A program made the position numbers and the translations under genes. Below, in pieces: positions 1 through 60,249 of a stretch of 64,000 nucleotides of DNA. Location of the stretch: assembly GCA_036172245.1 (NCBI GenBank), contig JAYWIR010000019.1, positions 806,001 to 870,000 on the forward strand, written 5' to 3'. The DNA is from Raillietiella orientalis. Taxonomy: Eukaryota. Numbering within the stretch: the stretch's first letter is position 1; every line of letters begins with the position of its first letter. The notes under the pieces were generated by a model. That model saw only the letters and a program-made list of their open reading frames with translations, made no database searches and was not told the origin of the DNA.

Positions 1-153
1 AAGTGGCAAAGTATTTTACAGATTTGGCGAATGTGGTCTTGCTGGAGTTGCCGATGGTGCGAAGTGTTTCTGAGATGAGCTTTTTTTGATAAGATGCTGA
101 GTATAATGAGTTTGCAGATCCGTGGATCCACTCCGACCATGAGGTTGCGGATT

Positions 154-660
154 ATTACCCGGGTGCGCCGAGGCGTTTATTATGAAGATAAACACACAAA
201 GTGTAGGGTCATCGGCCCTGCAACGTTCTAGAGAGTTCGGAACCTGCCGAATAACGGCACTCAGGCGGGCGAGGTTCGCCTCGGCATCGGAGGGGGAAGG
301 GAAAAACAAAAAGAAAAATAAGAGCAAGAACACTTCACGAAAAAATTGTAGGGTCAGAAATGGGATCACTGTCCGATGGGGTTGCGTGGTTAGCGTTGCG
401 GGTAACTCAAAAACATCCTTCATAACACTTCCATTTTTGGTCTGAAGTGTGGATATGGTGTTGGATGATCCAGTCCTCCGTTGCCACGCTCTGGATCACG
501 AAGACAATCTGCCTCGAGAGCAGGTATTGGTCCGAAGTTAGCGAGGAGGCTTCCCTTTTTTTTTCTTATGGGGAGTCGTTCAAACTCCTTGGAACCAAAG
601 CAGATTTTTCTTCGTTGATGCAGTATAGGAAGATTTGCTTGTGTGCGTGCGAAATTGTGA
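154..660 (-). mobile_element. 3' end (C-terminal ORF2 remnant + 3' UTR) of L1/Tx1-type non-LTR retrotransposon
   Basis: Minus strand shows GTGATCCC, a pyrimidine tract, then AATAAACGCCTCGGCGCACCCGGGTAATAA, the same 3' architecture as other L1-type ends in the window. Confidence 0.7.
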
Positions 661-1399
661 TATATATATATATATTTTAATTGGTCACGCAGCGATGTTC
701 GGAGCGAGAAATCCTGCTTCCGAAGATGTATCTGCGCGTAGGGAGCCGTTCGTAGGCGCATATAAGTGAGCCTCATGTCTGCAGCAGATGAGGCCATGAT
801 GAGCTTTACGAGCGCACGGCGGACCGTGGTCGCGCCTTAAGAGCGGAAGAGTCTTCGGATTCCTGGCTCTTTAGTGAGCTGCTAGCGAGAGCTCTTTTGT
901 TATACTGCGATCGCAAGTCGCCACCACCACTGCTAACTTTGGCGCTGGTGGTAGTGGTGGCGGTAACAGCCTTTGGGTTGCCACTCGTTCATATGGTGAA
1001 GTGCGCTGCCAACTATTCAGCTGCCAGTCGTTCTCCATGCAGAGTTCACCGCTAGTGCTTTGTGCTCAGCGTTCTACCTACTCTTCCCGGCAAGAAGGAT
1101 TGGGATTCTGCAGGCAGGGCAAGAGTCTGCCTTCATGCCAGGGTGCGAGACAAGCAACCACCAGAGGGGGAGGGGGATTAATCATCTGGAGATTTCACTC
1201 TATACTGAGCGAACTCCTGGCGGAGTAATCCCTGCAGCCTCGCTCAACTCTTTGAGCCCAACTCACTAAGTAATCGTTTTTTTCTCTTTTTGCCGATCCA
1301 CGCATAGAAGCGTGGCTGTGCTTCGAAGCGGAAGTCTTGGTGGTAAACGAGCACTCTTCCAACATGACCACGATTCTAAGGCGGTTGTCTGTGAAAAAC

Positions 1400-2360
1400 A
1401 TACACCAGCTACCGGAGCAGAGCTTGCGGCATTCGGGTGGGCACCCTTTTGAATTGCTGGGAACGTCGCCTGTACGTGTGCGAGGTGATTGCAGCAAGCG
1501 CACCTACTTCTGAGGTACACCTACAAGTGAGCTTACCTTATGAGGCTGGCAAACGTACACGATATCGACCGTTTCGTCGCAGGTGATTGATTGGTTCTTG
1601 TTGGTTGGTCGACCTACTCGTTGCGGTTATATGCGCTCCAGCAACTAGTCAACTGATGCAGCGTGTCTCTGAAAGGGACAGTTTGCCACTCTTCACCATG
1701 TGTGACCATTGCGTGGTCGAGGTTGTAGATTTCTGGCATCAGTAAGAAGCTTTCATCCATTCCCGCGCATCAGTGTGGTTGGAAGATAGAGCACGTCAAT
1801 TACGGTGATATCTTTCCCATCTTGTCAGTGAAATTACCCATTGATGCGAGATGCCTGAGAAGCGACTCTGGAACTGAAAACTCACCTGGTTTCGTCAGTT
1901 TTCGAATCTTCTCGAGTTAACGATACACTTTGCTTTGTAGTTTGTGAGACGTATTTGCAGCAGTGCGGCAGCGTGGTGTCCTAAGTCCGCTTTGCTCAGT
2001 TTTCGATCCGAGGGGATGTCTTCCAATCGATATTCCTCCTAAATCTCATCAGCCAATGGATGTGATCTGGTGAAAAACGTAATGAATGTTTTCTCTCACG
2101 TCTATCTTGGCTACTTCTATGTCAGATCCGATGATTGCTCTGTCTAGCATGGACTGGTTCCTCTAACGTGTCGGGACTAAGTTGAGCACTATGTTGGTGG
2201 CTGTTGTTGTTGCAGCTGGAAGTCTGATGGAATAGAGAGGGGTTCCTGTTTTCCAAGAGTCGAAGCTTGACGATATTCCTCGATAATGAAGTTCCAATCT
2301 CTTGATTTTCACTGCTAACGGGATTTTCTTTTCGTTCAGGAAGACCGTTTCCAGACAGAT
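1400..2360 (-). pseudogene. Possible degraded N-terminal zinc-finger region of a Utopia/NeSL-like element
   Basis: Stop-interrupted minus frame C-I-S...NHLRRNGRYRVR...LTCRC resembles the C..C...RHL...H...LxC module seen at 13345-13480 and 22830-22960; weak. Confidence 0.3.
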
Positions 2361-2379
2361 CTAGAAATCAATTGGGCGT

Positions 2380-3594
2380 AACGGGTGGTCGGACACTGAG
2401 TGGGGAGTGTCACGAAACCCGAGGACGCGATTCCCTATATCGGAGCTGTAGAGGACGTGGTCGACCGGCTTGTGGCTGGCTGTTAGCCATAGCAGTCCGA
2501 AATCGTCGGACAGCCGCCGATACGCCGTCCTGCCTCTGAAGTCCCGGGAATAGACGACTTCATCCGGGATGTTGAAATCCCCAACGACGATGACGATGTC
2601 CTTCGGTGCGACCTTTTGTCGGAGGGCTTCGTGGGGCGGCTCCGCGCACCGGTGCTTGTGTTGGTGGGGTCCGTAAACATTCACGAGGAACAGGTGCACG
2701 CTTGCGGACCAGGACAACCGTAAGGCGATGACTCTTCCAGGTACGGGACAGAAGGTTTCCAGGATGGTGTCGGCGAGCTCGTTCTTGATTGAGATCGCCA
2801 CCCCCATGGTGTGCGACTGTTCCTCGCTGGTGAACAGTTGGGCGTTCAATCGCCTTTCCAAGTCAAGGCTGATTTGCTGCCCCATCACGTGGGTTTCTTG
2901 TAGGCACGCGATGCCGTAGTGCTCAATGTTCCGCACTATTCTTCTTCTCCTTGTCTGATCTTGAAGTCCCTTAACATTCCAGGAGGCGATGCTTAGTCTC
3001 CTGGAGGTGGACAAGAACGAGAGGGCATCAAGAGGGTTTATTTTTTGCCCTTTCTGAGCTTCTTCTGTCGGGGAGATCGTTGTCGTCTTCCCGAGGAAGA
3101 AGGAGCGGGCTTCTCGCTACCGGCATCGCTCTCTGCCGGTTTGGTCGGTCATGTCGTGTTCTTCCATCGAGCGTTCGGCCCTGGCTACCTCCTTGGGCGG
3201 AGGGGTCTCCGAGTTGCCCGTCGCGCAGTAGGCCACCTTAGCCTCGAAAAGCTTGGTCTCCAGCTTTTCGCGTTCGCATGCCTCCACCAACTGATTTATG
3301 TCCTGCTGGACCTCGCAGATGCGAGTGAGGATTTGTTCCTGCTGCACCGCGGTCGGTTCCTGGCGGACCTCCTCGACAAGCTTCACCACCTCCTCGGTTA
3401 GCTGGGGGGCCTCCTGCGTCGCCGGGGTGGGTTCATTAACCTCCATTTTATCGCCTTCCTCTGCATTTTCCCTCTCTTCGGCCTTCAGGGAGGGTTCTTG
3501 CTTCTTCACGAGCAACCTCCTCTTGCCGCCTTTTCTCACTTCAACGAAGCCGTCCGCCGAAACCGGAGCGGCCTCCTTCGCCTTCCTCTGCTTC
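2380..3594 (-). mobile_element. L1/Tx1-type ORF1 C-terminus + APE endonuclease; inverted near-identical copy of 28797-30011
   Basis: ORF 2361-3014 has SWNVKGL, CLQETH, GDFN, DHVL and SDH motifs; translations match those at 29377-30011 and 28797-29274. Confidence 0.95.
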
Positions 3595-4700
3595 ATCGCC
3601 CTTTGAGGTTTGATTACCTCCTCCAACAGCCGTTTCCTAACTGGGGATTGACAGATAGGGAGGATAGGGTATCTCAGCGGGCCGAGAGCTAGCCAGAGGC
3701 CATGTGTCGCCTGCTGTGATCTTAGTAAGTCGGCGACGACTCCACCGACCACCATAATTTCAAATTTTGATCAATTGCGCCGCTGCTGTTCCAGACCCCA
3801 CCCCCAGACGGTAGGCTCCTGTACGTGAGTGCCCAGAAATCTGCCCCGCCAACCGGCCGCGAACCACAATTGGTTCGTAGCCGAGGTGCTGACCCTGAAG
3901 CCGTACGTGCCATCGCGCCTATGTCCTGGCAGGGTCTCATAAGCGAAATGCTCGGCACACTGGAGTACATCAATACGAGACACCATCCTAGCCAGGACAG
4001 GCGCCTCGTGCGTGTACTCAGCTGCGCTCCACATCCTGAAGCGCCAATCGGTCCGCGAAGTGGCTATCCTATATACGGCTCGCGACAAGTCAACACAGTC
4101 AAGTCCAGTGTTATACTTGTTGTATCACATGCCAGCATGGGTACGCTTACCGGTGACCGTGGTGTGCCCGGTCTCAAGCTCGTTGCATTGCCACGACCAG
4201 CCCAAGGTGGTTTGGCCGAGACAGGCGCAAACTGTCATCTGAGCACCCGTTGCCGGGTTGTTGCCGCCGTGGATGATCCGCCCTTCGAATCCCTTCGTTC
4301 CAAGGTAGTCAGCAGCATTTACAAGTTCATCCGTAATACCGCTCCCCGCCTTCCATTCTTCGAACAGTCGGCGGAGGTACCCCGCTCGGGACAACCTACC
4401 AAGTCCACTCTCCCAGAGAGCATTGACTATACTTCCGGGAGGCTCTGTGTTAAAAACGTTGTAGGTGTAACCCGCAACGAACACAGCCAGCTCGGCGTAC
4501 TTGGTCCATCGTCCTAGAAATACGATGGGATTCCTCCGAGCATCACCTCTAGCCAACGGGACCTGGTCAAAACAGCTCACCGCCCCCTGGTGGCCGTAGT
4601 CCCACTTTGCTGCCTCCCTTGCCTTTAACGGCGGTGTTTCCAGGCATTGCTGCCCGTCAACAACCGCAAAGGCAAGCGAAACACAACAAGGAACCCTTTC
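3595..4700 (-). pseudogene. ~360-codon non-TE reading frame (2 internal TGA) fused in frame to the ORF1 C-terminus; possible viral origin
   Basis: ORFs 4125-4580, 3771-4088 and 3117-3755 share one frame, separated only by TGA at 4125-4127 and 3771-3773; W/Y/G-rich globular composition; no TE motifs. Confidence 0.55.
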
Positions 4701-4749
4701 TCACTACGGAGCGCACAGAAAACACGTCCGCCGTGAGCTGTGTCACCAG

Positions 4750-5067
4750 CCAGGCATATGTCGGCTGCCAGGTGGCCTCATCTTCCAGAAGACGCAAGGA
4801 ACGAGATCTCCGGCATTCAACGCCGGTTCTGAAGGAAAGGAAGGAACAGCAGAAGCGCTTTGGCTTCCCGTGTCCCCTCCCCTCCTCATATTTTTATTTA
4901 TATATATTTTTTATACATGTAGTTGTGGTCTCCTCCCTCCGGTTCCGGATATTCGGATTTACCGACCTGCGTGCCGGGGAGTCCTTCGTTTTTCTGTGGC
5001 CTTTATCCGGGAACCCTGCGCCCGGGTAGTTTAGCAATAAACGCCCCGACGCAGCCGGGTAAGAACC
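4750..5067 (+). mobile_element. 3' terminal fragment of L1/Tx1-type element
   Basis: ...WPH...EISGIQRRF* is shared with 26190-26248; ends AATAAACGCCCCGACGCAGCCGGGTAAGAA. Confidence 0.8.
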
Positions 5068-5599
5068 AGCCAGGCACCCCATTTCTTTCATAAGCAAAAG
5101 ATTTAGGGATGGGCTTCCGGTAGCAAGGACAGTCGCCTAAGGCAAGGAAACCGAATCCGTCCGTCCTACGCAGGTGGCGCGGATGCAGCAGCAGTCGTTT
5201 GCTGCCAGCAGTTCACCTCAGGGCGAGGAAGGCCGGAAGACACCGAGAAAACGCCCACAGCTTCGCACGGAGTCCCAGTCACCAGAGCTGCATCTGTGGC
5301 TCGATGGTTTCCGACTCCAAGGTGCCCAAGTCAGCGCTCTGGTGTAGCGCTGCAAAGTCCAGACTCCACAAAGTCTAGGCCGGGTCCGTCACGAAAGAGT
5401 TGGTAGTGTCGTGCCACGACGTCAACAAGCTGTTCTCTGCTCCTTAGGAAAATCTCGTATAGAGATTGCTGTGCACCACAAGGCTACCCTAAAGCCCACC
5501 GACGAGGTGGGAGTTATCATGCACCATCACGGGAAGAACAAAACTCTTCGGGGGCTGGAAGACGAGAGAGCTGGCAAATGCTGCCACTCGTGATATGGC

Positions 5600-6632
5600 G
5601 ATGGGGCTTCTTCGGTGGGCAGAACTTCGTCTTGCCTCCGAGGAACTCATGGTGCCTCCCATTGTGTGGATGGTTCGTTTTCCACCTTGCTTAGAAATAT
5701 GCCTTCCTGCTCTTCATTCACTAGGGTGAATGAAGAGCTGCATAGGGCTCTTACCAGCGGCCAGACGCCGAAGTGGCAAGTCTCCTGCCGGATCTCAGGA
5801 CGAGAGAAATTGTTAAACGGTTGGACCAAGGGAGAACTGGCGGATGCCACGACCCCGAGTGCCCTCCCGCGAGGACTTGCAAGATAGGGCGAGCTGCTCG
5901 GCATCCCGACGGATGACTTGAAGTGGCCCCGGTTTTAATTGGAGCCAGGATTCTCCCCCTCAAGTGGCAAGAGTCGGCGCTGCTGACGTTGCATTGGGGC
6001 CTGCCTTGCAACGCGCGCTGCTTCCACTGGACCTGGGGGAGAGTAAATCCTGAGTGTGCCCGGTGTGGGGTGAGGGAATCGCTCCCCCACCTTCTTGTTG
6101 ACTGTGCTGCTCTCCGACCCCTGCGGGAACGGTTTGGGACGACCCTAGGGCTCCCTACGGGCAGCGCGCCCAGAGACGCTTTCCGCCTCTTCGTGCGGGA
6201 CGCCCTGCAGCCAGCCGCAGTCGTGGCAGCATTATGCTGCATCCGTGGCATCGTGGCGGCGTGGAGTGATACACGCGACGAAGATGTGGACCAGAACGAG
6301 AGGGACGTCATCCCGTATGCTGTTCGCTTCCTGACGAGAGCTTCTGGATGGCCCCAGCTGGGTACAATTCGGATGGACTTAAAGGGCTTCCTTCGAAGGA
6401 TGGGCCCTCCTCCCAGTGCAGAGTGATCCCTTCCCAGCCCTCCAACTTCTTTTTGTTTTCCTTACTTTTTATCCTTCTTTTTGTTTTCTCCCCCATCCCT
6501 TCCACTGCCGAGGAGAGCCACGTCGGGCTGCGTCCCGGCAGGTCCGGTGTTGTGTGGCCGTTAGTGGGGCCTGGTACCACGTTTGTGGAATGTTTTTTTT
6601 AATAAACGCCCCGGGATTACCCGGGTGGAAAT
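5600..6632 (+). mobile_element. L1/Tx1-type ORF2 C-terminus (CCHC) + 3' UTR
   Basis: ORF 5923-6426 LHWGLPCN...ECARCGVRESLPHLLVDC; terminal AATAAA-hairpin at 6601-6630. Confidence 0.9.
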
Positions 6633-6649
6633 CACTAGGGTGAACGTGT

Positions 6650-7365
6650 AGAGCATTCAGAGTGTGAGGTGGTCAATTCACAGTGTAGAGCGATGGCATC
6701 GAGTTCTGGAGGGGTTGCGTTCGCGAACTGTGGCAGGTGAGGGATTCAATCCCGCATCTGCTTTTGCGGTGCCCTCCAAAGACTGTGTCGGAGACTCACA
6801 ATAGCACAGGCACCAGGAGGATACCAATAGAGACGTGCTGCGGAGGTTCTTCGCGCCGGGAGGCCTCTCGAAGGGCGCAATCATCGCAACCATGGGTTGC
6901 ATTCGCGTCATCGTTTCGGCTCGACAGGTGCTGGTAATCACCAGTCATCGAAAAGGGGTCATGAGGATGGCATCCACCTACATGGAAGCAGCCGCAAGGT
7001 AGACTCACCTGATAGGAGAAGCAAAAGAGATTACCGAAATTTACCGCCTGTTTACGGAGAGTTTGGAACGGCGAACCTGGTAAGCCTTCCTTCCCTTTAT
7101 TTATTTTATTTCATTTTTCAATCCCTCGTTCGCTTACGCTCTGAAACTTTCTTGGTGCTTTTTGTTCTCATCCCGGTGATTACGGAGCGCCACCAAAGGT
7201 CCGCCCCTTTCTTTTCATGTTTTTGTTGTTGTCCGTACCCATTACGGACTTTCCGTTTTCCCGACCTGCGTGCTGGTGGATCCTCCCCTATGTTTCTTTG
7301 TTGTCTTGGTTGTGGACATTGTTCCTGACTTATTCATTTAATAAACGTCCCGACGTGACTGGATT
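6650..7365 (+). mobile_element. Degraded L1/Tx1-type ORF2 C-terminus + 3' UTR
   Basis: RDSIPHLLLRCP and ATMGCIR motifs; AATAAACGTCCCGACGTGACTGG at 7340. Confidence 0.7.
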
Positions 7366-16074: not shown

Positions 16075-19000
16075 TTAAGGTATGAACCGAGTTTAGAGTT
16101 CGGCGATCTGCTCCTGCTCCATTTCTGTTTCCGTTATTGCATCGTCGGGAGGATGTCCCAGTCCATACGTCCAGTAGACTTCAAGACTGTACTGGATGCA
16201 CGCAGCAACCATGATCTTCATTTTCTTTGCATATGTCCTCGGAATATTTAGCTTTCTGAGGACTGCATATTTCTTGGATCCCACGATTCAAGTGAGGCAA
16301 CAATAATGGCTCTCATATCGGCTTGAGAGCCATGTCTTCTAAAGTGTACCACGATGTCTTGGTACTTCCTTTCTATATCTAAACTCGCATTAATGAAGGC
16401 TTTCTCCTTATTCTCGAATAGACACGAAACTTTGAGACAAGGATCCGGTTGGCTTTCCGTAATACGAAGTCAGGCTTCAAGCTGCAGTCCATTACGGGGA
16501 TGATTTGATTCGCTGACGTCAGCTTCCAGTCACCAATATCTTCGGTATCCGCAAGAAGTCTATCAACGATGGAGTTATGTCGAGAATTGTACAGATGAGA
16601 GTGGATCAAGCAGTGATTAAGAATGTGAGGCAGCGTCTCGTCCCAGCGCACACATCTTCGACGTGACCTGACTTCTGAGGTCTCCTTCCAGCACCTCTGA
16701 TTGATAGGAGAATTAATCTGGCAGCATGAATAAAGCGATAATCAGCAAATTGAAGAAAATCACAAGAACCTACAGATCTTGTCTACAGATATAAATATAC
16801 GAAAAACATAAAACATTCATCATAGATAGCCTACGACTTACCAAAACAGCTTCCATAGAAGACCCAATGAAAGGAAAAACATTACAAAAATGGCAACACA
16901 ACTCATAAATACCAAAAGCAACGAACGAGATATACACTGGTATGCCGATTACCAAGGAAACAGCGGAAAGACGACTATAGCCAAACACATATACCTACAA
17001 TACGACGCTCATAAGTCAGGAATTAAGCCGAGGCACGATACAGACCAACCCAGCGCATGGCATCCCTTGATCGGGATGCTTCTCTATCAATTCTGGCCAT
17101 GCTTGCTGCCGCTGCGCATTTCGTACTGAGGCAGAAATTTCCTCCTCGATGACGCATGCAACGCAAGGTCCCTTACTTGGATTCTCGCTTCTCTATTTTG
17201 GAAGGTCGACACAGCAGACATTCGAGCCGAAGCCTGCCTGCCAGTGGACCAAATACTCATAATGCCTTCACTGGTATGGAAAAAAACACCGGAAGTGTCT
17301 CCCAGCAGAAATCCACCAAGCTTATCCTCCGGAGGCGCGGTAAAGCTGTTTTTTCTGAACCACCTCTTTGAGTGATTTCTTGGCTAGGTCTTCAACGGCG
17401 ATGTCCTGCAACGTTAGGAGCTTAAGGCAACTGTCCAGTATGAAGGTTTCAGCTTCATCTGTCGGTCGCATCAAGCTGGGGTATCCATTTCTACGTTCTC
17501 CATATAAATACTGATAAGCTGCTCTAGATGGAAGCTGTAGCAGCTTTTTGATCTTTTTCCTGAGTTCAGCATCCATGGCCTTCCACTCGCTCTTCTGATG
17601 CAACCCTCGCCTTTGGAAATACACTAGGCTAGGGAAGAAAAAGGTTTTTAGAGCATCAATCTTCTGCTAAGGAGAGAGGCCTGATTCCATGATAGTCAAT
17701 TCCTTATCTATCATTCCCTCCCTGGTAGGCGTGGACGTGAACACCTCAATCCCAAAAGGCTTACTCAAATACTTGTACACATCCGAGAGCGATAGGTTGG
17801 GAATCAAGCCACCAACGACTTGCAACTTCAAGCTCCTAATACCCTTCGGTGTTCTTCCAGAATAACATCAGGCATTTCAGCAGGTTTATTCAGAGACCTG
17901 ACCTTTCAATGGGAGACTCTAAATGCTGTAATTTCTTCGGATGTCCTCTTCCGAAATCCCAATGAAGACTAGGTCATCAGTATATGCAAGGAGCGAATCT
18001 TCACCATATGACTCCCTGATAACACGAAGAAGAGGCTCCCACGTCAAGTTAAACAGATGAGAGCTAAACAGGCAACCCTGCTTTACCCCCCTGTTCGACA
18101 TGAAGGGTCCTGTGACTGCAGATTGTAATCGAAGATAGGTAGAACTTCCCGTGTATATATCTTTAACAATTTCCATGAACATTCTCCCTGCTCCGACTGC
18201 CTCCAGAATGCTCAAAAGCATCAGGTGGCTGATGGATCCAAAAGCATCCGCCAAATCTACAAGGACTATCGCTAGATTGGCAGCTCGTCTCTCATGATCG
18301 AGGCGAATCTGAATAACGAAGTTGTTTTTAAGAACTTTATCAAAAGAAAGAAATCCTTTTTGTAGAAGACATATAATCTTGTATTCTAGAATCCGGTCCC
18401 TCAACCTTGCAGAAAGACATTCCGCATATAAGCGATAACAGGAGTTTCCAATTAAGATTGGACGCCAATCTGCAACATTATGAGAAGATGGAGAACGTTT
18501 CGGTAACATCGTTCTTGAACCTTTCCACACTGTTGGAATCTTCCTGCGTTTTAAGAAAATGTTAAATAGCGCAGCCAATAGCTCCGCTTCTGGATCCATC
18601 ATCCTCTAGCCAGAGTAGGTGATGCCATCCATCCCAGAAGAATTTTTGGCCTTCCGCAGCCACAAAGCCATCTCTTCTCGCGTAAATGGAGTCATCTCAA
18701 TTGGGGATGGGAATACGTTCCTCCCAAGTGAAATCATAGCTGGAAGCTCTAGATCAAACTCTACAGAGCTTTCTATTCTTCCAATGTGCTTCTCGATCTC
18801 ATCGGCTTCAATCGGGAAGCGGTTCTCTGTTTGTCCGATAATGATCCTGAATGCTCTTCTATTCAGGCGATACAGCCTTTGGATCTCGGACTTGTCCTAG
18901 GAATCGATCTTCTTGTCTGAGCTTTATGTGGACGTACTAAAGTACTAAAGCACTTTTCTAATGTTTTCCACCAGCTCCTCGTAGGATCTTTCCAGGACAT

Positions 19001-20800
19001 CCCATTCCACTCCCTCGGCTTCCAATAGGTCATTAAATGACTTCTTGTCGTCAAGGAAGTGGTCAGAGGAATCTGCGCGTAGCATCTTTTTTTTTCTTTT
19101 GCGAATCTTAGTAGACTCTGTTTTTTGGACATGAACAACCTTAGAAGCAGCAAAATCTTATTCAGATTGTCATTATTATCTGGTTCGCCAGCTCCAAAAA
19201 CGGAGGGTGCAGCCTCAAAGTCAATTTGAGGCTCGGGTAAGGGAAGATCCCACCACACTCTATAATCCAGGGGCAGAGTTTGACTCGTATCCTCTTCAAT
19301 ACAGCCAACTTCTACATCTTCCTTAATTAATTCCACAATGATATGTCTCAGATCTCTAAAGAATTCATCGCCTTCAGATAATGCAGGCAATTCATGATGC
19401 TTTTGCGCTTCAGCTGCTACCATCTGGGGTCGCTGAATTTCATTTTCTTGTCCTTCTTCTTGCCCTTCTTCAACATTCAGATTACTGAGTCCTTCAGAAA
19501 TTTCTTGTTCCTCTTCAGGAGTGTCCACTGCAGGGGCAGGCAAAGCCCTGCTCTCTGCCCGATCATGCCAGATCTGATGGTTCAGCAATCCTCTTCGCGA
19601 AGGGAATGCCATACCACAGTCCAGCTTGTTGTACCTGATTGGTACTTCCACGACTGATGGGGACGGAGGACCAATCCCCCTTCATCTGGTTGAGCAATTT
19701 GCTCAGGGCAAACATGGTCGGAGGGTCTTCTGCTAACTATAACGTTAGAGCAAACTCGACATTCGTAGACAACTTGTGCCACGTCCACTTTGTGGATATT
19801 CCTGATATATCTCTTAATAGAGTTCACTTGATGGTGCACCGTGGCTGTCCTTGTAACAAATGGGCAATCATCCACACCACAGGAGAGCGATATGGCAAAA
19901 GGGAAAAGAATAGTGACGACGCAACGCTGCGGATCTAACCTCTCTACCCTCTGCATGATTCAATAAACCACGCGCTGTGGTTAGAACGCGCCAACAGCCA
20001 CACCGCACCGTCGAACATGTCTGCTTCCGGAGTGCATACTGTTCAAGGATTTCGCTTTACAGGAAAACCACAAAGACCAAAAATTTGCAATTCAAGGCAA
20101 ACAGCTTCTAACAAACAAAACACAAAGAAGCCAAATTCAAAAAATGTACGCAAAACACACAAAAAAAAAAAAAAAAATAGAAAGAATCCCGGATTTTAAA
20201 ATGAAACCATCACGCCAATTCGTGAAACAACCCAAGATAAACATACAGAATAGCAAACAAACATACATAGCAAAAACACAAAAAACAAAAAAGGACAATT
20301 CCAGAATAACACATAAAAGCAAATCTCAAGAAAGGGACTCGGTTTGGTTCCAGAAGAACTGAGATCCTGCTTTATTTCGAAGCAGACCACCATAGAAGAG
20401 GTCCAGACGCCGCTTCCGCCCAGACGTGGCCTTCGAGGAATGTCCAGACAGTCGGGACAGCCCAGTCCAGTCCCAGTTCTTCAGGGGCAAGGTCTTCACC
20501 GACGAGTTAATCCACGTTCCACATGGATCCAGATACGTGTCAACCAAATAAAAGATAAAAGCAGGCAAATAAAGAATAGAAATTTCTTTAAAACAAACAA
20601 CCGATATAAAACAACGACAAACACAGCACACACAAAAAAAAAGGGAAGACACAGGGCAAACACTGGGAGCAAAAAAAACACACACACAGTAAACACAATA
20701 ACACAATGACAATAGTGATCATATTTCACGAGGACGGGAAGAGGGAACACAGCACACGGAAACACATGGCAACAGTGCAAAAACACCTCACAAAAACACT
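16075..20800 (-). mobile_element. Near full-length degraded Utopia/NeSL-type retrotransposon (zinc fingers, RT, CCHC, restriction-like endonuclease)
   Basis: ORF 17919-18602 WRPI, DLADAFGS, GVKQGC, AYTDD; ORF 16379-16651 ETLPHILNHC...RHN...KPD; N-terminal CGVDDC...H...CRVC at 19582-19956. Confidence 0.92.
16771..17010 (+). other. rep: Endogenous CRESS-DNA-virus Rep (SF3 helicase Walker A region) fragment
   Basis: LQKWQ [frameshift] QLINTKSNERDIHWYADYQGNSGKTTIAKHIY; A-rich insert interrupting the Utopia ORF between ...FLT and G(S)CDFLQFADYRFIH. Confidence 0.8.
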
Positions 20801-20815
20801 TGAAAATTCACTTTC

Positions 20816-20835
20816 ATTAAGCTGATAAGAACAGA
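20816..20835 (-). ncRNA. U2: U2 snRNA fragment (sequence just 3' of the Utopia insertion site), not a complete gene
   Basis: Minus strand TCTGTTCTTATCAGCTTAAT directly after the element's A-rich 3' end (ATAAATAAAAA). Confidence 0.85.
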
Positions 20836-23800
20836 TTTTTATTTATGAAAAAGTTACAAATCTGTGTATGCATGAGCAGCTGTGGCTCTGCCCGATCTAC
20901 TAATCTTTTCTTCTATGCAAATGGACCATTTTGGTGTTGAGCTGATTGTTTACGGTGCTTCCACATCCAGAAACTCCAGCGGGTTGCAAGCATCGTCGGG
21001 TACATGTCCTGGAGGTGTGTCCAGTAGACATCCCTGCTGTATCTGATCACTGATGGGACGATCAGCTCTCTCATCTTGGCTGCGTATTTTCTGGGGACGC
21101 CTAAGCGTTTGGGAACTCCATCGTTCTTAGGATCCCATGATCCTAACTCTCTAACGATGATGGCTTGAACATCAACCTTCATTCCTCCACGCGATAGTGA
21201 AGTGGCGATCTGCTGGTAGTTCTCCTCCTTCTCCAGTCTGGTAGTAAAGAATGCCTCCTCCCCATATTTAAAAAGGCATGCAACATCCAAAACCATTATC
21301 CTTTGATCCTTTTGGAGGACGGTTTCAGGACGAAGTATCGAGTTCGCATCTGGAACTTGTTGATTCGCAGATATCAATCTCCATCCCGCTGTTGTGATGG
21401 AGACCTTTTTCAGTCTCTCCACTACTACGTTATGCCGGAGTTGGTACACGGAGGAGTGCCTCATACAATGATTGAGTATATGAGGCAAAGTCCCGTCCGA
21501 TGTTCCGCATCGACGGCATAGCAGATGCTGCTCCAATCTTCTCGGTATTCCTCGGATCGGCACGAAGGTCAGTCGTGCTGAGTGGATGAAACGAAAATCT
21601 GCGAATCGCAAGTATTCGCCGCTGCTGTCAAAGTGGCTGGAGACAGGATGGAGTCCAGCGCACCGCATGGCTTCCTCCTGATCGGTGTGCTTATTTATCA
21701 GAGAAAGCCATGCAGATTCCCGCTGGAGACTACGGATTGTCGAAGCCACCTTTTTCCTTTGAGTTACTTCAATAGTCACATAGGAAAGGGAGATCATAGG
21801 TCACGGTCAGCCCTTTCCACGTTGCGGACAACCTCCGAGAGGCCTGTCTTCCTACCGCCCAAAGACTTTTGATATCACCTCCTTTACACGGAATTGTGCC
21901 ACCTCGTTCTGACGACGTTGACTTTCCTGGATCGTCATCTGTTGAAGGTGAAAGGGTCTTTTTCAAGACTACTTCCTGTAGAGAGGACATGGTCAGTTTG
22001 TTTAACAGAGGCATCGGGACAAGTAAGGAGCTTGAAGCACAAATCCAAAAGGAAAGTGTCTGCTTCATCATTCCCAGGCAGTCCTTCTTCACATCACCGT
22101 AAATATATTCGTTGGCCGCTCTGGAGGAGATAAAGCACCGCTTTTATCACGCATCTAATTTCTTTGTCGAGGAACGACCAGTCGCCTGTGCGTTCCCAAT
22201 CTTTCAAAATGTATGGGAAGTTAAATGCCTTCAAGGCATCCAACTTTTGTCAAGGTGCTAGGCCACTACACTACAGGCCAGGCCAGCATAAAACTTTTTG
22301 TTCACGAAACGGGTGTTACATTGTAGTGCTTTACGTTGATTGAGGGAAAGGGAAGGAGGAGTGGGCTTTTGCGGGCGGCTTATGGCTTCCACCACGTTTC
22401 GCAGCAGAGGCTCGCCCTCATTGCCCTCAATTAGAGCAGAAAGGGCAGAGTAGCGGTTTCGAGTGGCAAGGGAGGTTGCAGATTACGTCTTGGCCACTTG
22501 CAGGGATCCAGCCACACCGCTCCGCGTGGCACGAAGCCCATTCTCCCGAGAACGACCTTTGACTGTCGTCCATCCTTCAGGGGAATCACGATCCCTGGGG
22601 GATGGGGAGGGCTGCAGCGAATTAGCAGTATTAACGGGTCGCGCTTTCCGGGACATCAGGGACTGCCAGCGGGAGTGATTTCTCAAGCCCGTTGCATTGG
22701 GGAAGCTCATGCTGCAGTGCTCGCGAGGGCATTCTAGCCACGCGGATCCCTGGTCTGCGTGCTCTAATTCGTTTACACTTAAGCAGGTGAGTCGGGAGGG
22801 GTATAGCCAGGGAGCAGTTTCGGCAAATGAGGCTGTGACGTACGATTCGCACTTTGTGTCTTCTGAGTAAGTGCCTCTTCAGGGATTGTAACCATCTCCT
22901 TGCGTATGCCGTCATCTTTTCCCAATGACATCCTTTCACAATGCAGCGCATCATCTTGGGCATCGGGAGTTGGATCAAGAGTTCGTCGTCGTTTACCATT
23001 TTGATGTCACTCCGCTGATGGACTTTGACCTGGAAAGTACGGCTTACCGCCACGTTATTGGACGCAGGCGGCGAGTGCGAGGGGGAGGGGTTCGAACTGC
23101 CGGAGGAAGGGAGGAGGAAGGATTCCCAGACGCTCGGCTTTTTCTTCCCTTTCATGCTGCCTAGGGCTTCCCGGAATCGCATAGTTGCGGGTTTCATCGC
23201 AATTAATTGAGGGACGCAGGGTAGAAGGAGGCGGACTTCCTCTTCTCTCTATCTCACGAATGCAAGATTCGGAGACGGGGGGCGCCTCAGGGGGGCAGTA
23301 AGTTCCTAGGGAACAAGCCGGCGACTTGTTCCACATAGGTTTCGCTTCGCTCCGCTCATGACGTTCGCACGAGCGGGGGCGGAGTCCCGAGACGCTAGTA
23401 CCTGGGGAAGGGGGGTATGTACTACCACGAGTCCAGATCGGGTGGATCCGGCTCGACAGCTCGCAGCGTTTGTGCGGCGGTCTCATTGGAGGGGTTTCAG
23501 TATGCCCTCCGGGACAGACTGCAATGCGTCCCCGTATGAGGCATGGAGCTCGACTGCCCGGGACAGTTCCACCATGTCAGTTTGAGAGGGGGAAGCGATC
23601 GTAAGCACAGAGGCATCAGATGCACTTGGGGATGAATGAAGTTTGTTGGGAGGATTCGTGATCAGGACCGCTTAGTTCAACTGCAGGGACACCTGGTATA
23701 GGGGCATGAATGGGGAAAGCACTGTCGCCTCCCGCATGTGTGCTACGCTCGTGCACCTCGGGGTAGCTACCGTCCAAGTTGTCGTCCGTAAAGTCCAGAG

Positions 23801-25689: not shown

Positions 25690-26466
25690 TTAGTGAGTTC
25701 GAGCAATGCCAGCACTCCTCGCAGTCGTGCCAAGGGTCTCCCACGGGGGTGCGAATTCTTGAGTGTGCCCCCCGAAAAACTCGTTGTCTCTCCTTCGTGC
25801 GTGGACACGTCTGTGTTCCCCCTCCAACGAAAACAGGACGCGCTTCTGCTGGTTCACTGAGGCTTCCGTTGCAACCAGCGAGCGAACCTGGTTTCCGGGG
25901 GAGTTGCGCACTCGAACTGCGGAAGGTGCGAAGCAACGGAATCCCTTCCGCACCCACTGTTTGCCTGCGGTGTCCCCCAAAGGCTGAAACGGAGGTTATC
26001 TTCAGCTCTCCTGCATTCGGGGAGCACCTCCATGGACTTGGTGGGCCGCTTCTTCTCGCGAGGTGCGGTCGGCGCTAACGATGTGTTGCAGCCGCGCCAT
26101 CCTCACGGCCTGTCGCGTGTCGCAGTTGCAGGCGGCCCCAACAGAGGTCAACAGGACTGCAGCCTGCAACATAAGCATGAATTCTTGGTGGCCTCACATC
26201 AACGAGCAAGTGAGGAAGGAGATCTCCGGCATTCAACGCCGGTTCTGAGAAGGAGGAACGGCCAAAGTCAAAGACCCCTGTCTCTTACCAATCCCATATA
26301 TTTTTGTGTTTGTTTATCGTCCCCTCCCTCCCCTTCCGGACTCAGAGTATGCCTATACTGCGTGTCAGGAAGCCCTCCCCTGAATTTCTGTTCCCACTGA
26401 CTGGAAATTTTGTCCCCATAGGATTTCCATTTTTAATAAACGACCTGGCGCAACCGGGTAAGAAAG
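25690..26466. mobile_element. Two opposed L1/Tx1-type C-terminal fragments (minus ~25690-26030; plus ~26030-26466 with 3' end)
   Basis: Minus HRRVHARRR..FFGGHTQEFAP matches 42210-42290; plus EISGIQRRF* and AATAAACGACCTGGCGCAACCGGGTAAGAA. Confidence 0.75.
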
Positions 26467-27653: not shown

Positions 27654-29274
27654 GTGCAGCTGAGGACTATCGCCAGCACCAGCAGCGCCGGGGTGTCCAC
27701 GGTGGAAGACCTGCGAACCTCCCGAGCGGCAACGGCAGTGCACCAGCACGCCGCGAGGATGCAGCAGCAGGCAGCAGCGATGGAGGAGAGGACGGAGCTA
27801 CCCCAGCCTATGGAGGTAGTAGCATCAAGCGAGGCGTCCCCGGTGAAGGTGGTTGCCGGTGCGACAGGCGGGCCCGTAGGCCTACCCGTTGCTAGGGACG
27901 CCACGCCATCTTGAGCGGCTGCGACCGTGGGGCGGACAGCGTTTTCTTATGCGGCTGTGGCGGCGGGGACGACGATCACCCGACCGGCCCAGACGTTTGG
28001 CAAGCCCGAGGCGGGCAAGATAGAGATCATTGACGAGCCCATCATTAAGATGGGCCCGAATGTCAAGCCGATTACCTTCAAGATCGGCCTGATTAGAATA
28101 CACAACATCAGAGAGGTTTACCTGGCCTTATACCGGTCAAACGTCGACTTTGACGCGGTACAGGCCATAATACCCAGTACCACCGCGTTCACCATCTTTA
28201 CAGATTGTGAACAATTAACGGAGGCCCTGATTAAGAAGGGCATGAACACCCAAGGCAGGGTGGTCCGCGGCATCGGGGATATGCCGCATACTACGGAATT
28301 TCTCGGTGGTGTCTGCGGGACCACCAGCAGGCAGGCGGTGTGGGCGTTTCTAATCAAACACTGAGAAGTTCTGGAAGTGGAATTCCGGAGAAGTTCTGGA
28401 AGTGGAATTCCGGAACTACTCCGGAAAGGCGTTTTCGGGCGAAGTGGTCGCCAAGGTGGAGTTGTTCGACGAGGCGCACATCCCGTGGGTTGCCCACATC
28501 GATGGGAACTCCCAGGAAGTACATGTCAGGTATCGCCAGCCGCCGGTGTTCTGTACGCGCTGCAAACATCTCTGTCATCGGGTGAGCGCGTGCCCTAGGT
28601 CTCGGTGCTTCCGCTGCGGGGAGCAGGGACACCAGGTGCGCAGCTGCAGCATGCCCGAGGTGTGCGCATTTTGTAAGGAGCCGGGACACGCGAGGTGGTG
28701 GTGTCCCGAGTACGCCAACGGGCGTACGATGCGTGGAATCTCCCCCGTGCGGGAGAAGGTTTTGACGGAGGTGACGAAGCCTCAAAAGCAGGCGGAGAAG
28801 CAGAGGAAGGCGAAGGAGGCCGCTCCGGTTTCGGCGGACGGCTTCGTTGAAGTGAGAAAAGGCGGCAAGAGGAGGTTGCTCGTGAAGAAGCAAGAACCCT
28901 CCCTGAAGGCCGAAGAGAGGGAAAATGCAGAGGAAGGCGATAAAATGGAGGTTAATGAACCCACCCCGGCGACGCAGGAGGCCCCCCAGCTAACCGAGGA
29001 GGTGGTGAAGCTTGTCGAGGAGGTCCGCCAGGAACCGACCGCGGTGCAGCAGGAACAAATCCTCACTCGCATCTGCGAGGTCCAGCAGGACATAAATCAG
29101 TTGGTGGAGGCATGCGAACGCGAAAAGCTGGAGACCAAGCTTTTCGAGGCTAAGGTGGCCTACTGCGCGACGGGCAACTCGGAGACCCCTCCGCCCAAGG
29201 AGGTAGCCAGGGCCGAACGCTCGATGGAAGAACACGACATGACCGACCAAACCGGCAGAGAGCGATGCCGGTAG
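27654..29274 (+). pseudogene. L1/Tx1-type ORF1 with three CCHC zinc knuckles (stops and frameshift)
   Basis: CTRCKHLCHRVSAC, CFRCGEQGHQVRSC, CAFCKEPGHARWWC; stops at 27912 and 28362; 25-bp tandem duplication 28363-28412 shifts the frame. Confidence 0.9.
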
Positions 29275-29376
29275 CGAGAAGCCCGCTCCTTCTTCCTCGG
29301 GAAGACGACAACGATCTCCCCGACAGAAGAAGCTCAGAAAGGGCAAAAAATAAACCCTCTTGATGCCCTCTCGTTC

Positions 29377-30222
29377 TTGTCCACCTCCAGGAGACTAAGC
29401 ATCGCCTCCTGGAATGTTAAGGGACTTCAAGATCAGACAAGGAGAAGAAGAATAGTGCGGAACATTGAGCACTACGGCATCGCGTGCCTACAAGAAACCC
29501 ACGTGATGGGGCAGCAAATCAGCCTTGACTTGGAAAGGCGATTGAACGCCCAACTGTTCACCAGCGAGGAACAGTCGCACACCATGGGGGTGGCGATCTC
29601 AATCAAGAACGAGCTCGCCGACACCATCCTGGAAACCTTCTGTCCCGTACCTGGAAGAGTCATCGCCTTACGGTTGTCCTGGTCCGCAAGCGTGCACCTG
29701 TTCCTCGTGAATGTTTACGGACCCCACCAACACAAGCACCGGTGCGCGGAGCCGCCCCACGAAGCCCTCCGACAAAAGGTCGCACCGAAGGACATCGTCA
29801 TCGTCGTTGGGGATTTCAACATCCCGGATGAAGTCGTCTATTCCCGGGACTTCAGAGGCAGGACGGCGTATCGGCGGCTGTCCGACGATTTCGGACTGCT
29901 ATGGCTAACAGCCAGCCACAAGCCGGTCGACCACGTCCTCTACAGCTCCGATATAGGGAATCGCGTCCTCGGGTTTCGTGACACTCCCCACTCAGTGTCC
30001 GACCACCCGTTGATGCGGTTTTCCCTGGGGACCAAGAACCCTCTCCAAAAGAAGGCACCTAGGGCGGCGTTCATCAGCATGCCCGCCTGGTTCGAAGCGC
30101 TACCCGAGCACCAAGAGCTTATAGAGGCGATTCTGCAGGCGGCCACCATCAGCAGAGTCGCCGATTCAGAGACCCAAAGAAGCAGCCTTGAAGTGAACAC
30201 CATGAAATTGTGGTACGAATGA
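29377..30222 (+). CDS. L1/Tx1-type ORF2 APE endonuclease domain, 3'-truncated
   Basis: SWNVKGL, LQETH, NVYGP, GDFN, DHVL, SDH motifs. Confidence 0.93.
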   Translation: MSTSRRLSIASWNVKGLQDQTRRRRIVRNIEHYGIACLQETHVMGQQISLDLERRLNAQLFTSEEQSHTMGVAISIKNELADTILETFCPVPGRVIALRLSWSASVHLFLVNVYGPHQHKHRCAEPPHEALRQKVAPKDIVIVVGDFNIPDEVVYSRDFRGRTAYRRLSDDFGLLWLTASHKPVDHVLYSSDIGNRVLGFRDTPHSVSDHPLMRFSLGTKNPLQKKAPRAAFISMPAWFEALPEHQELIEAILQAATISRVADSETQRSSLEVNTMKLWYE

Positions 30223-34099: not shown

Positions 34100-36300
34100 T
34101 CTCCAAAACGCTGCACATACATAACGCGACGCTGTCACGGAGTGAGCATTCCATACTCATTTCCAAACACCAACGTAAGAACGCAAACGTTAAAATCGCT
34201 GTAATTCAAGTTGACAATAAGTTTCGATGGTTCACAAGAACATACGAGAATAATTTCACGTTTTTTCCGCGTTAACACGAGGCTGATGGCAAACTCCACA
34301 GCAGCTTTCATCTCCTGTCGCATCAGAGAGATCGCTGAACGGCGCTTTTGGGTTTCGGCGAACAAACGCAATCTGCAGCGTCGAACGGCTCGCCGGTCAT
34401 CACGGCGACGTGCTCCTTACTTTCATTTAAGAGCAATGAGAAAAACGACCGTGCATGACGTCAGTAGCAGAATGCTTGTGCTTCAAAGAGAAACAGAAAG
34501 CTCTTACACCCTTGGAGATAAAAATGAACAATTCACTTGTTCCGGTCCTCCAAAGACGAAAACAGTTACATCCGTTGTCTGACCTCCATAAGTCTGGGAA
34601 CAACTTGCCAAATTCCTTAGAGTGAATTAAAACTCCCCGTCACTCCCACAGAGCAACTGGTCGGTTCCGAAGTCACCCCCTCAGCGGGTGCCCACATTTC
34701 CATGCACATCGCCTCTTGCGTGATAGGAGAAACCAAGGGGATCAGACCGAGAAAGCACTTCCCGTCCAAAGCACCAAATTTCAGTTCACAGTCAGTCGGT
34801 CCCTGTTTCCCGACAAGTGGCGCTTCCGCATTCACCCCGACTGAAGGAACTGCTACCAGCAAGTGGCACTGGAATGCACACTTTCCCAATGCAGGAAGCA
34901 CTCACGACGCGCGGAAAGGTGAGCTTAGCGCCTTGAAAACGCAACGGGAGGCAATTCACCCGCTCAACTCATCTCCCACCTACGTGAGACCTATCCAAGG
35001 AAGCCAACGGTTTGCTCCCACTCCTGCCAGAAGCATTGCCTGCGCCTTACTTCAACTTGGGCAAGCATTCCTGCCAACAGGGGTTCTTTTGCGCCCGTCG
35101 CTCTGACTGCTATCCTCTCGTCCCAGAAATCCCCCGAATCTTCCCACCTTGCTAGAAATTTCCCCTTTTGCAGAAAAGATATCGTGAGCGGAGGACACAT
35201 TGGAAATACGCCTCCACTTCCCGCCTTGCAAGCACACCTCGCTATCGGGCGGGAATTCCGGGAACGAAACCCGCGTAACCATCCACGGTCATCTGCGCAC
35301 GTCCGAAAGTCCGCTGATTCCCGGGTGAGTGTCGGATGCGCACACTTCTGGCCGTCAGCAGTGACGACGAGGATGCCGCGTCGTACGCCCATGGCTTTTC
35401 CGTCGCCATGCAGCAACGGGAAGCCGTGGTTTCCCCCACGGCGAAAGGCCGCAGGACGCGAACCGTGGTACGGAAGCATCTTCCCAAGCAAGCATCTGGC
35501 GAAACGTATCTCTTTCCATTCCTTCTCTCGAGAATATCTTCCGAAGAGGCGCATAGGTGCCAAGCACCGCGTACGCATGCGCGGAAGTTTGCAGGCCGTT
35601 GTCCAGCCAGGCTTTTCCAAATCGCTTGATTGGAGTACGGGGAACTGAAGAAATTCTCACCGAACGCATCTCCGGAAGCATGGTTCCGCCAAAGATCTCG
35701 TGGGAGCAGTCGCTGTTGCGTTGGGCAGCACTGGAAGCACACGTCCGATGAACTGCCAGGGAAGAACGTACTGACCTCGGAAGGGATGCTGCGGATTCGG
35801 TCGCTGCACAACTGCAGCCAGCGGGGCAAGTGGCTCATGAGCAGTGCGCGGAATGGCAAAGTGCTTTGGACGAAAGCTTGCCAACTCGGAACGTGCGTGG
35901 TCTGCGCAAAAGTTCCAATCGCATGTCCTAAGGTGCATCTGTTTGGCGTCGAAGGGATGCCCGCAAAACGTGGCTCCGCTGCTGGTGCAAGAGCAATGTA
36001 TCAAATACGTCACGTGGTTTTCACACCATGGTACTGTGCACATGTGAAAGAGAAGGCCGCCATATCGATTGGTGCGAAGTGGGAATGCTGGAACGGTCGG
36101 TTTCCAAAGCAGCGTCTGCTAGCGCACCATAGCAACTACGCAGAGACTGCATTCTCAAGACGCATTGCATTCTCAAAGTTGCTCACGTCCCTTCCGAATG
36201 TTTGAAACCAAGGACAGCAGAAAAACCGCCTATATTCCAGCAGCTTTGGGTGACTTCCCAACATATGCTCTGAGTATTCCGAAGTCCAGTGCCGCATCTC
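34100..36300 (+). pseudogene. Heavily degraded L1-type ORF2 (RT to CCHC)
   Basis: Remnants TKGIRP, WKYASTSRLASTPRYRAG, CVVCAK...HLFG in the expected order. Confidence 0.5.
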
Positions 36301-58620: not shown

Positions 58621-60249
58621 AACCCAGGGTTTACTCCTGGGAAAGTGGCGCTGCGGCGTCCACCACCTGTTGGGGCGGGACGCTAGGAGTATGAGGGAGT
58701 GAAGCTTCGGGCACCTGATCCCCCTCCTGAATGGGTGCCTGTGTGTCCGGCGGCTCCCACGAACGCACCCTCGTGTAGCGCGGACAGTGTTCAAAGAGAT
58801 TCGTGACCTCCCTCATTAGGATGCGGACGGTTCTTCAGCATTCCTTGTGCATCGAAAAAAGGATCTGCGACGACGCGGTGGTGCCGACGTGATGCGCTTT
58901 TCCGTCGTCAGTCTCTCTAGCGTCATCAAGACAGAGCGCTGCGCGTCACCGAGGACAACATTGACACTGGCGAAGGAGCTCGGTGGACGCCGAGGGAGAG
59001 GTGGTGATGGGACTCTGAAAGAGGATCCTCGAAGGCATCGGCGGCATCTCTGGCCTCTCGGAAGGCTGCGCAGGCTGCCGGCTGCCAAGCAGCACCTTTC
59101 GTGGCGGGTGATTCCGTAGCCCTTCGGATACTGAGCCGGGCTCAATGAGGACGCCGTCCGGGTAAAGGGGCTGTCCCTCTCAGCGCACCTGGAGGGAGTC
59201 GGAGCCGACGCGGCGTCTCCAGCAAAGGGTGCGCGTCGTGACGGCTTACATCGCAGAAAAGGGGAGCAGAAAAGACCAGCTGACGATGGAGAAGCTCGGG
59301 CACTCAGAAGACTCCTGTCTCTGCGGATAGGAGAACGGGAAATTCTGCGTGGGGAGCGTCCCGGACGGGGGCAGTGGCAGGTCGAGAGAGGCAGCACCCC
59401 CGTGACACGAGGGATGCTGATAGAAACATCCGAAGGTTCAAGCCCCCGGGAAGCCACCTCACCATTGACCAAAGACGCTAATAGTCCTCTTCCTCGAGTG
59501 AAATCCTGGATTGAAAGACTGGTAGAGAATGGAGAATTGGAATCCATGGAAACCAGAATTCACTCCGGAATCAAAGCATGCCGCATTTCCCGGATCCATG
59601 CGACCTCAACCAGAGGATTGTGGGATAAAGAAAAAAATCCAGAAGGAGTGGTGACTCCTGAACGTACGCACGCTGGGTGCGCTCCCTCGGCGACGTGAGT
59701 CCGGGAGGGAAATCCCTGCGAAATCCCTGTCGAAAGACCTATCAGGTGCTTCAACATTGAGAGCCCGCAACTTCGCCCATCTTATGATGATGCTCCTGAT
59801 GTTGAGGGGGCGGTAGGGCGTACCATGGTGTTGTCGAGGAACTTTTTTTTTCCTTCGAACATTCCTGTTAAAATCTCTGTTTTCATTTTCTTCTGCATGC
59901 CATTCAGCACCTTCAGCGCAGTCCAGCCCTGGAGCAGCGTCAGAACATGGGAAAACGTAGAGCTGGGTTACTGTCCCCACAGGCTTTCCAGAGTTCATCT
60001 CAGCTATTACCTGTCCAATGTTTCAGTCGGGAGTTACTAAGAATGCTTCCGTGGTAATGCATTAGGAGGTCATCCTCAGCATCTGGTGGTAAGTCGCTCC
60101 TACACATCTCTCTGCCAACCGCTAACAGTTCACGTTGCGGATCCCGTGGCTCTTGGCGGCCTCGTGCAGTGCGTCGTCTTGGGTTCATATGTTTCTTCAT
60201 TTCCTCATGGATGCTGCCTCTGATGATCAGGTGCTACTCATTGGTAGCT

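Follow-up and report, generated by a model that had tools for sequence, protein, structure and literature searches.

A fragment of a toti-like virus capsid gene adjoining retrotransposon coding sequence in Raillietiella orientalis

Architecture of the locus

The window analysed here is a stretch of 64,000 nucleotides (nt) from the genome of Raillietiella orientalis (assembly GCA_036172245.1, contig JAYWIR010000019.1, positions 806,001 to 870,000 of the forward strand). Near its start, at ~3648-4700 on the minus strand, lies a non-retroviral endogenous viral element (EVE), derived from a capsid gene of the Omono River virus/arthropod toti-like type, and this directly adjoins open reading frame 1 (ORF1) of a long interspersed nuclear element (LINE), a retrotransposon without long terminal repeats (LTRs). 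A second copy of the same LINE is present elsewhere in the window; we refer to the LINE piece beside the viral sequence as copy A, and to its counterpart as copy B. The features on which the analysis turns are as follows (all positions are those of the window):

2380..3116, minus strand: N-terminal, apurinic-type endonuclease domain of LINE ORF2, copy A (PF03372, E = 5.5e-15); 100% identical to copy B
3117..3600, minus strand: charged C-terminal half of LINE ORF1, copy A; 100% identical to copy B; ends with the TAG at 3117-3119
3601..3647, minus strand: start of the LINE ORF1 part (SPVRKRLLEEVIKPQ...); at the homologous position to copy B, diverged, with a 3-nt indel
3648..4700, minus strand: endogenous viral element of ~350 codons, truncated at its 5' end; homologous to the C-terminal third of toti-like ORF1 (capsid/coat)
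3771..3773, minus strand: second in-frame TGA of the viral piece (codon 310 of the read-through translation, P0001)
4125..4127, minus strand: first in-frame TGA of the viral piece (codon 192 of P0001)
4771..4985, plus strand: 3'-terminal fragment of another LINE, bounding the 5' side of the viral piece (blastn and tblastx)
28354..29274, plus strand: LINE ORF1 of copy B, comprising an N-terminal part, CCHC knuckles and then the shared C-terminal half
29275..30222, plus strand: endonuclease domain of LINE ORF2, copy B (Exo_endo_phos, E = 1.1e-14)

The viral piece and ORF1 of copy A are read in one common frame, which is made up of three contiguous stop-to-stop intervals on the minus strand (4125-4700, 3771-4124 and 3117-3770), with a TGA at 4701-4703 as its upstream limit; at its other end, the ORF1 stop is followed, still in the same frame, by the endonuclease ORF. 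An earlier note on this DNA, made from the sequence alone, had described a frame running from 4700 into ORF1 with two TGA interruptions, and the frame coordinates bear this out. The peptides that it quoted are likewise all to be found in the sequence: HAGM*YNKY and RRN*SKFE, where the asterisks denote the stops, and SPVRKRLLEEVIKPQ as opposed to SPVREKVLTEVTKPQ for the matching stretch of copy B. Its description of the upstream part as W/G/Y-rich is true to a modest degree, the frame at 3648-4700 containing 3.7% W, 10.3% G and 3.7% Y.

The openness of 3648-4700 exceeds chance: its 351 codons include two stops, whereas windows of this length contain 12.0 on average when all six frames are considered, and two or fewer are encountered in only 1.4% of such windows and in none of 2000 shuffles. 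Both TGA codons fall within blocks that align well to the viral relatives, without a frameshift. The copy A locus encodes no protein today: the earliest in-frame Met is at codon 155, and the next stop is at codon 192. A functional non-LTR ORF1 would be expected to have a frame open from a start codon, together with CCHC knuckles or an RNA recognition motif; copy A has neither, and a Pfam search of it gave no CCHC match. If the locus has any present activity, this might be as a template for antiviral or transposable element (TE)-directed small RNAs, in what is a region rich in TE fragments.

The LINE partner is identified through copy B, in which the CCHC knuckle (scoring 19.9 bits, just short of the threshold of 20.8) and the Exo_endo_phos endonuclease together uphold the earlier assignment of ORF1 to a retrotransposon. 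The block said to be identical between the two copies is real: positions 2380-3600 and 28791-30011 are 100% complementary over 1221 nt. In both copies, ORF1 and ORF2 share a frame and are separated by a single TAG (29272-29274 in copy B, 3117-3119 in copy A), an arrangement that suggests production of ORF2 via stop-codon read-through or reinitiation. A search for relatives of the copy B ORF1 returned none. At the other end, the LINE homology of copy A stops abruptly at 2380, just after the endonuclease, and the sequence at 1-2400 resembles no other part of the window; neither a continuation of the LINE nor an older element that it might have interrupted was found there. Given this abrupt end, the LINE piece of copy A is an internal fragment, devoid of both the reverse transcriptase and the 3' end.

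The joint itself is tightly delimited. The toti-like homology ends at ~3657 and the homology to LINE ORF1 begins at ~3647, both in the sense orientation on the minus strand and in the same frame, which places the virus-LINE joint at ~3645-3657 with at most ~10 nt between the two homologies. It falls just past the position at which the knuckles of copy B end, such that the viral piece takes the place of the N-terminal and zinc-knuckle half of ORF1. Immediately upstream of the identical block, over 47-50 nt (~3601-3650), copy A shows many differences from copy B, several of them synonymous, and it is the alignment of these positions to copy B that substantiates the in-frame join at a homologous position proposed in the earlier note. 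The boundary of the identical block, at 3600, thus lies ~47 nt away from the joint. Since it is next to the joint that copy A is diverged, LINE sequence of greater age must have been in place there before the 100% block arose.

Affinity of the viral fragment

The viral identity of the fragment was established by an exhaustive phmmer search of 1.84 billion representative proteins, with the domain as the query. This returned 76 proteins at E <= 1e-3, 32 of them at E <= 1e-10, the best having an E-value of 3.1e-34 (31% identity); in many of the relatives with a length of 1400-1700 amino acids (aa), the match is positioned at approximately residues 1000-1450. Twenty clusters were looked up, and the eight that carry names are without exception ORF1, coat or capsid proteins of toti or toti-like viruses: Totiviridae sp. 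2, Bactrocera minax totivirus, Solenopsis midden virus, Nilaparvata lugens toti-like virus 1, Corcyphos virus 2, Linepithema humile toti-like virus 1, Zeugodacus toti-like viruses and Hubei toti-like virus 18. Several further clusters without names derive from contigs of 6.8-7.5 kb. When the 76 relatives were compared with the window by tblastn, 71 gave one high-scoring segment pair (HSP) each, and the other five gave none at E <= 1e-3; all of the HSPs are on the minus strand within 4694-3552, mostly extending from 4598-4601 to 3657-3690, so the solid toti-like homology spans ~4601 to 3657. That each relative yields a single HSP indicates that the viral piece has remained free of frameshifts over ~1 kb.

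A relative with its genome context is provided by an IMG/VR contig (L001; 6,891 nt), which was retrieved with a 4-row alignment and is the sole relative genome examined. Its 1405-aa ORF1 (56-4273) overlaps a 953-aa ORF2 (3823-6684), the latter carrying the RNA-dependent RNA polymerase (RdRp) domain PF02123 (RdRP_4, E = 5.1e-14), and residues 920-1196 of the ORF1 match the domain from the window with 30% identity (E = 2e-35). In view of such contigs of ~7 kb, in which the ORF1 is linked to an RdRp, it is unlikely that the toti-like ORF1 family is of host rather than viral derivation. A search of IMG/VR with the single sequence P0002 gave no match. Similarly, single viral ORF1s found nothing relevant among the PDB sequences, whereas a profile built from 26 full-length ORF1s reached subunit A of Omono River virus (9thi_A, E = 1.1e-8), the match running through a repeated HN..MH..NGN motif.

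This motif, in the form H-N..H..N-G-N, lies in the middle of ORF1, outside the part kept in the window, and occurs twice in 9thi_A. Across the 26-sequence alignment, His574, His579, Asn582, Gly583 and Asn584 (P0003 numbering) are invariant and Asn575 is nearly so; it may represent a processing or assembly site.

Searches by other routes were largely silent: a word-indexed protein search with the whole domain gave no match, the ESM Atlas gave no usable match to the uninterrupted 191-aa piece, and a scan of JGI metagenomes with the domain matched 51 patterns and yielded no relatives. Pfam and NCBIfam returned for the domain a stretch of DUF1990 (PF09348) below threshold and nothing else; as its scores of 22.6 and 19.8 bits do not reach the cut-off of 23 and only ~35 of the 157 profile positions are covered, this is attributed to chance, given the phmmer matches. 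An oomycete RxLR/WY effector was also considered, based on a weak match to RxLR121 (8woj_A, E = 0.01, 57 residues), the only one among the PDB sequences, and was likewise set aside as chance, since the phmmer matches to toti-like proteins at these residues are far stronger.

According to Pfam, the 76 relatives are devoid of TE domains, and only one of them has any Pfam match at E <= 1e-3. That protein (P0041, 716 aa) carries a parvovirus-type PLA2-like domain (PF08398, residues 12-53, E = 2.1e-12) with a toti-like capsid stretch downstream at residues 530-700; this could point to a further endogenous chimera or to mis-joining in the gene model.

In a quick tree of 43 rows, comprising the element and the 42 of the 83 stored relatives in which at least 240 query residues are covered, the element stands alone near the midpoint root and is not nested in any named clade; the tree is taken to show no more than this. 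With at most 31% identity to anything among the 1.84 billion representatives, the element represents a deeply divergent toti-like lineage.

The predicted structure of the domain points in the same direction. An AlphaFold model of the read-through domain, with X at both stops and a 44-row alignment as input, has a mean predicted local distance difference test score (pLDDT) of 81.1 and a predicted template modelling score (pTM) of 0.77. A structure search of BFVD with this model gave nine matches at E <= 1e-3, led by Hubei toti-like virus 19 (E = 2.9e-22, TMq 0.75), the coat protein of Leptopilina boulardi toti-like virus (E = 3.3e-20) and Sanxia water strider virus 20 (E = 2.3e-19), with the capsid of Solenopsis midden virus at rank 6 (E = 1.7e-17). 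In a scan of 48,161 solved chains, which was independent of Foldseek, exactly two reached Z >= 5, namely, the capsids of Giardiavirus (8r0f_B; Z 7.3, 302 aligned residues, root-mean-square deviation (rmsd) 6.1) and Omono River virus (7d0k_A; Z 6.8, 251 aligned, rmsd 5.1, chain residues 1215-1614); next came the capsid of a megabirnavirus (Z 3.8), with unrelated chains from Z 3.7 downwards. Two points tell against reading too much into this: Foldseek with the same model found no match in the PDB at E <= 1e-3, and Z-values of 6.8-7.3 are within the range that common arrangements can reach (Z < 8). The latter are therefore counted as support only because the top three chains are all capsids of double-stranded RNA (dsRNA) viruses, in agreement with the sequence evidence. 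The domain is predicted to have the toti-type capsid shell fold.

The resemblance to toti-like dsRNA virus capsids, which the earlier note had offered as an impression only, is consequently borne out at the levels of sequence, profile and predicted fold. The best hits are neither ordinary non-LTR ORF1s nor host proteins, and both homologues and a coding signal are present.

What remains of the virus is partial. The retained part corresponds approximately to residues 920-1450 of a toti-like ORF1, rather than to a complete one; no counterpart of ORF1 upstream of about residue 900 exists elsewhere in the window, and no RdRp match was obtained anywhere in the window at E <= 10. Moreover, the viral piece has LINE sequence on both sides, the bounding fragment at its 5' side being recognizable through the 81% identity of 4771-4832 to 26187-26248. 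From the 5' truncation and the nonsense codons, we conclude that the capsid-gene fragment is an endogenous viral element, and neither a virus nor a working gene.

Origin of the joint

dsRNA viruses have no DNA stage, and their genomic fossils must pass via the reverse transcriptase of a host retroelement. Because such a virus reaches DNA only through a cellular reverse transcriptase, the presence of a sense retroelement directly 3' of the viral piece fits a template switch. We consider it likely that the viral fossil, joined directly to LINE ORF1, arose by template switching of the LINE reverse transcriptase, this being the most likely mechanism in the light of the arrangement. The LINE reverse transcriptase would have copied LINE RNA from the 3' end and then, within ORF1, would have jumped onto a viral plus-strand RNA, of which ~1 kb was copied before it stopped, thereby leaving a chimeric insertion with virus at its 5' side and LINE at its 3' side. 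The shared reading frame would be a one-in-three accident. Two nonsense codons would have been acquired in the viral piece afterwards, and a later event would have removed the 3' part of the LINE at 2380; the identity of 2380-3600 to the copy 25 kb away could reflect either later gene conversion, or an assembly or polishing artefact. Of the hallmarks of a LINE template switch, the foreign copy is found 5' of the LINE, in the same orientation and with a direct junction; a LINE 3' end or poly(A) and a flanking target-site duplication were not found in copy A, possibly owing to later deletion.

A number of observations weigh against this origin. The LINE part stops at 2380 with nothing LINE-like beyond it and, since its 3' end is missing, the features that would mark a single event of target-primed reverse transcription (a LINE 3' end with poly(A), and a target-site duplication) are not demonstrable. 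The halves also look unequal in age, with two nonsense codons on one side and 1221 nt at 100% identity on the other, such that an extra event is needed; additionally, the divergence of the 47-50 nt on the joint side implies that the original LINE partner did not belong to the exact lineage of copy B. Finally, agreement in sense (1 in 2) and in frame (1 in 3) is weak evidence when taken alone.

These same observations lend some weight to the idea that the two pieces are unrelated neighbours, an older toti-like EVE and a LINE fragment juxtaposed at the DNA level, with their orientation and frame being coincidental. Nested insertions, deletion, double-strand-break repair or gene conversion within TE debris could each bring this about, and truncated LINE pieces, lying in either orientation, do indeed make a mosaic of the window. 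The LINE piece is cut at both ends, unlike a retrotransposition product; the contrast between no differences in 1221 nt of LINE and two nonsense codons in 1053 nt of viral sequence would follow from different ages; and the same strand and frame together would be expected about once in six by chance. However, such a history does not readily explain why the two homologies abut within ~10 nt, nor why a sense retroelement is directly 3' of the viral piece, which is what a template switch predicts, and the diverged LINE bases next to the joint predate the 100% block. We regard juxtaposition as a serious but unlikely alternative. Misassembly is highly improbable as the source of the arrangement. It would require that mis-assembly or polishing across LINE repeats produced either the joint or the 100% block, and that the viral piece and ORF1 are not genuine neighbours in the genome; the window does contain two perfect inverted-repeat pairs of 1.1-1.2 kb with sharp ends, which are unusual in old TE debris. 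Nevertheless, the block boundary at 3600 is distinct from the joint at ~3650 and, with ~47 nt of diverged LINE sequence between them, collapse of the identical block alone could not have made the joint. Moreover, a dsRNA virus would be absent from DNA reads unless it were integrated.

The earlier note had also raised the prospect of a virus-retrotransposon chimera or a captured domain. At the level of sequence, the chimera stands; a working or propagating fusion lacks support, as the locus is broken and no other copy came up in the window, among the 83 stored relatives or in the JGI metagenome scan. In its full form, the proposal would be that a LINE lineage gave up the RNA-binding N-terminal and knuckle half of its ORF1, took in the C-terminal part of a toti-like capsid instead and retrotransposed in that state, with the present locus being a decayed copy. 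The in-frame join just past the end of the copy B knuckles is what this would produce, as is a viral piece that has kept its frame over ~1 kb and is modelled with a confident fold (pLDDT 81); the several synonymous changes among the differences between SPVRKRLLEEVIKPQ and SPVREKVLTEVTKPQ would, furthermore, be expected if the partner LINE lineage had been evolving as a coding element. Set against this, the frame lacks a start until codon 155 and contains two stops, copy A has neither reverse transcriptase nor 3' end, and no second copy of the fusion is present within the 64-kb window. In a comparison with the 83 stored toti-family proteins, the copy B ORF1 had no match at E <= 1 and the endonuclease ORF a single one, at the level of chance (E = 0.95), and the 76 phmmer relatives are, as described, free of TE domains. 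The fragment, being part of a capsid shell protein, is also no obvious autonomous module. Domain capture is therefore highly improbable, and the evidence does not favour a fusion that functions or propagates. The template switch of a LINE reverse transcriptase onto viral RNA remains our preferred explanation.

Related systems and genomic surroundings

Mosquito EVEs are mostly associated with LTR elements and PIWI-interacting RNA (piRNA) clusters, and the bornavirus-like elements of mammals with LINE-1. To our knowledge, a joint that identifies the responsible retroelement is rarely preserved in the fossils of dsRNA viruses. If the joint described here holds true, it would provide a concrete example of the capture of a dsRNA virus that was mediated by a LINE, and not by an LTR element, at a locus that also records a deeply divergent toti-like lineage. 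If, instead, further intact copies were to show that the domain had been captured, a non-LTR retrotransposon would have recruited a dsRNA-virus capsid module into its own RNA-packaging protein, which would be much rarer.

Toti-like EVEs as such are already known: they are described as ubiquitous in planthoppers (PMC10636211) and have been reported from ticks (PMC10675110), ants (PMC6540820) and horseshoe crabs (PMC12282059). As portrayed in these accounts, they are partial capsid or RdRp gene fragments in host DNA, often interrupted by stops and with arthropod toti-like viruses as their relatives, and the present element conforms to this pattern. What is particular to it is its deep divergence (best identity 31%) and the preservation of an in-frame, direct joint to LINE ORF1 coding sequence; the available passages of the planthopper paper (PMC10636211) mention a piggyBac neighbour, and no LINE joint. 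On the retrotransposon side, template switching by LINEs is described as generating chimeras with cellular RNAs, such as U6/L1 and mRNA/L1 (bioRxiv 10.1101/2025.02.02.635956), and a tripartite chimeric pseudogene is described from Magnaporthe (PMC2104539). As in the chimeras outlined there, the foreign copy is 5' and the LINE 3', in the same orientation and directly fused; unlike them, the foreign RNA is here viral, the LINE 3' end is absent, and the joint is inside ORF1 and in frame.

Two further systems offer partial parallels. A nodavirus-like RdRp EVE (eBxnv-1) resides inside a Bel/Pao LTR retrotransposon of Bursaphelenchus xylophilus (PMC5177903); as there, a piece of an RNA-virus gene is physically within a retrotransposon, suggesting retroelement-mediated capture, but eBxnv-1 is presented as an RdRp that has intact LTRs and is expressed, whereas the fragment in R. 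orientalis is a broken capsid piece fused to a non-LTR ORF1. R1 LINEs are described as carrying a tobamovirus-like helicase domain in ORF2 (PMC4686597), and so they too have an RNA-virus domain in frame with a LINE protein; by that account, the R1 domains are full length and belong to a propagating family, whereas the present case is a single decayed copy.

Among the 74 frames of at least 130 aa in the window, no ordinary host gene was recognized, and the whole window consequently has the appearance of a TE graveyard. The second of its perfect inverted pairs is formed by 34830-35973 and 37392-38535, which are 100% complementary, with 1144-nt arms that are 1418 nt apart. Such pairs could be artefacts of assembly or polishing, could belong to a foldback-type element, or could stem from gene conversion or recent inverted duplication, and the existence of a second one calls for caution about the assembly. 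A different non-LTR element occupies a low-GC stretch at 17922-21800 on the minus strand: it has an RVT_1 domain at 17922-18605 (E = 6.9e-18), a C2H2-like motif in 18863-19681, and a CxxC...H...C tail in 20913-21800. Additional fragments of LINE reverse transcriptase and endonuclease are located at 53871-54890 on the plus strand and at 58149-58682 on the minus strand. Atlas clusters were of mixed taxonomic content; for one reverse-transcriptase ORF, a protein with 59% identity was found, the other matches being distant and some of them from fish.

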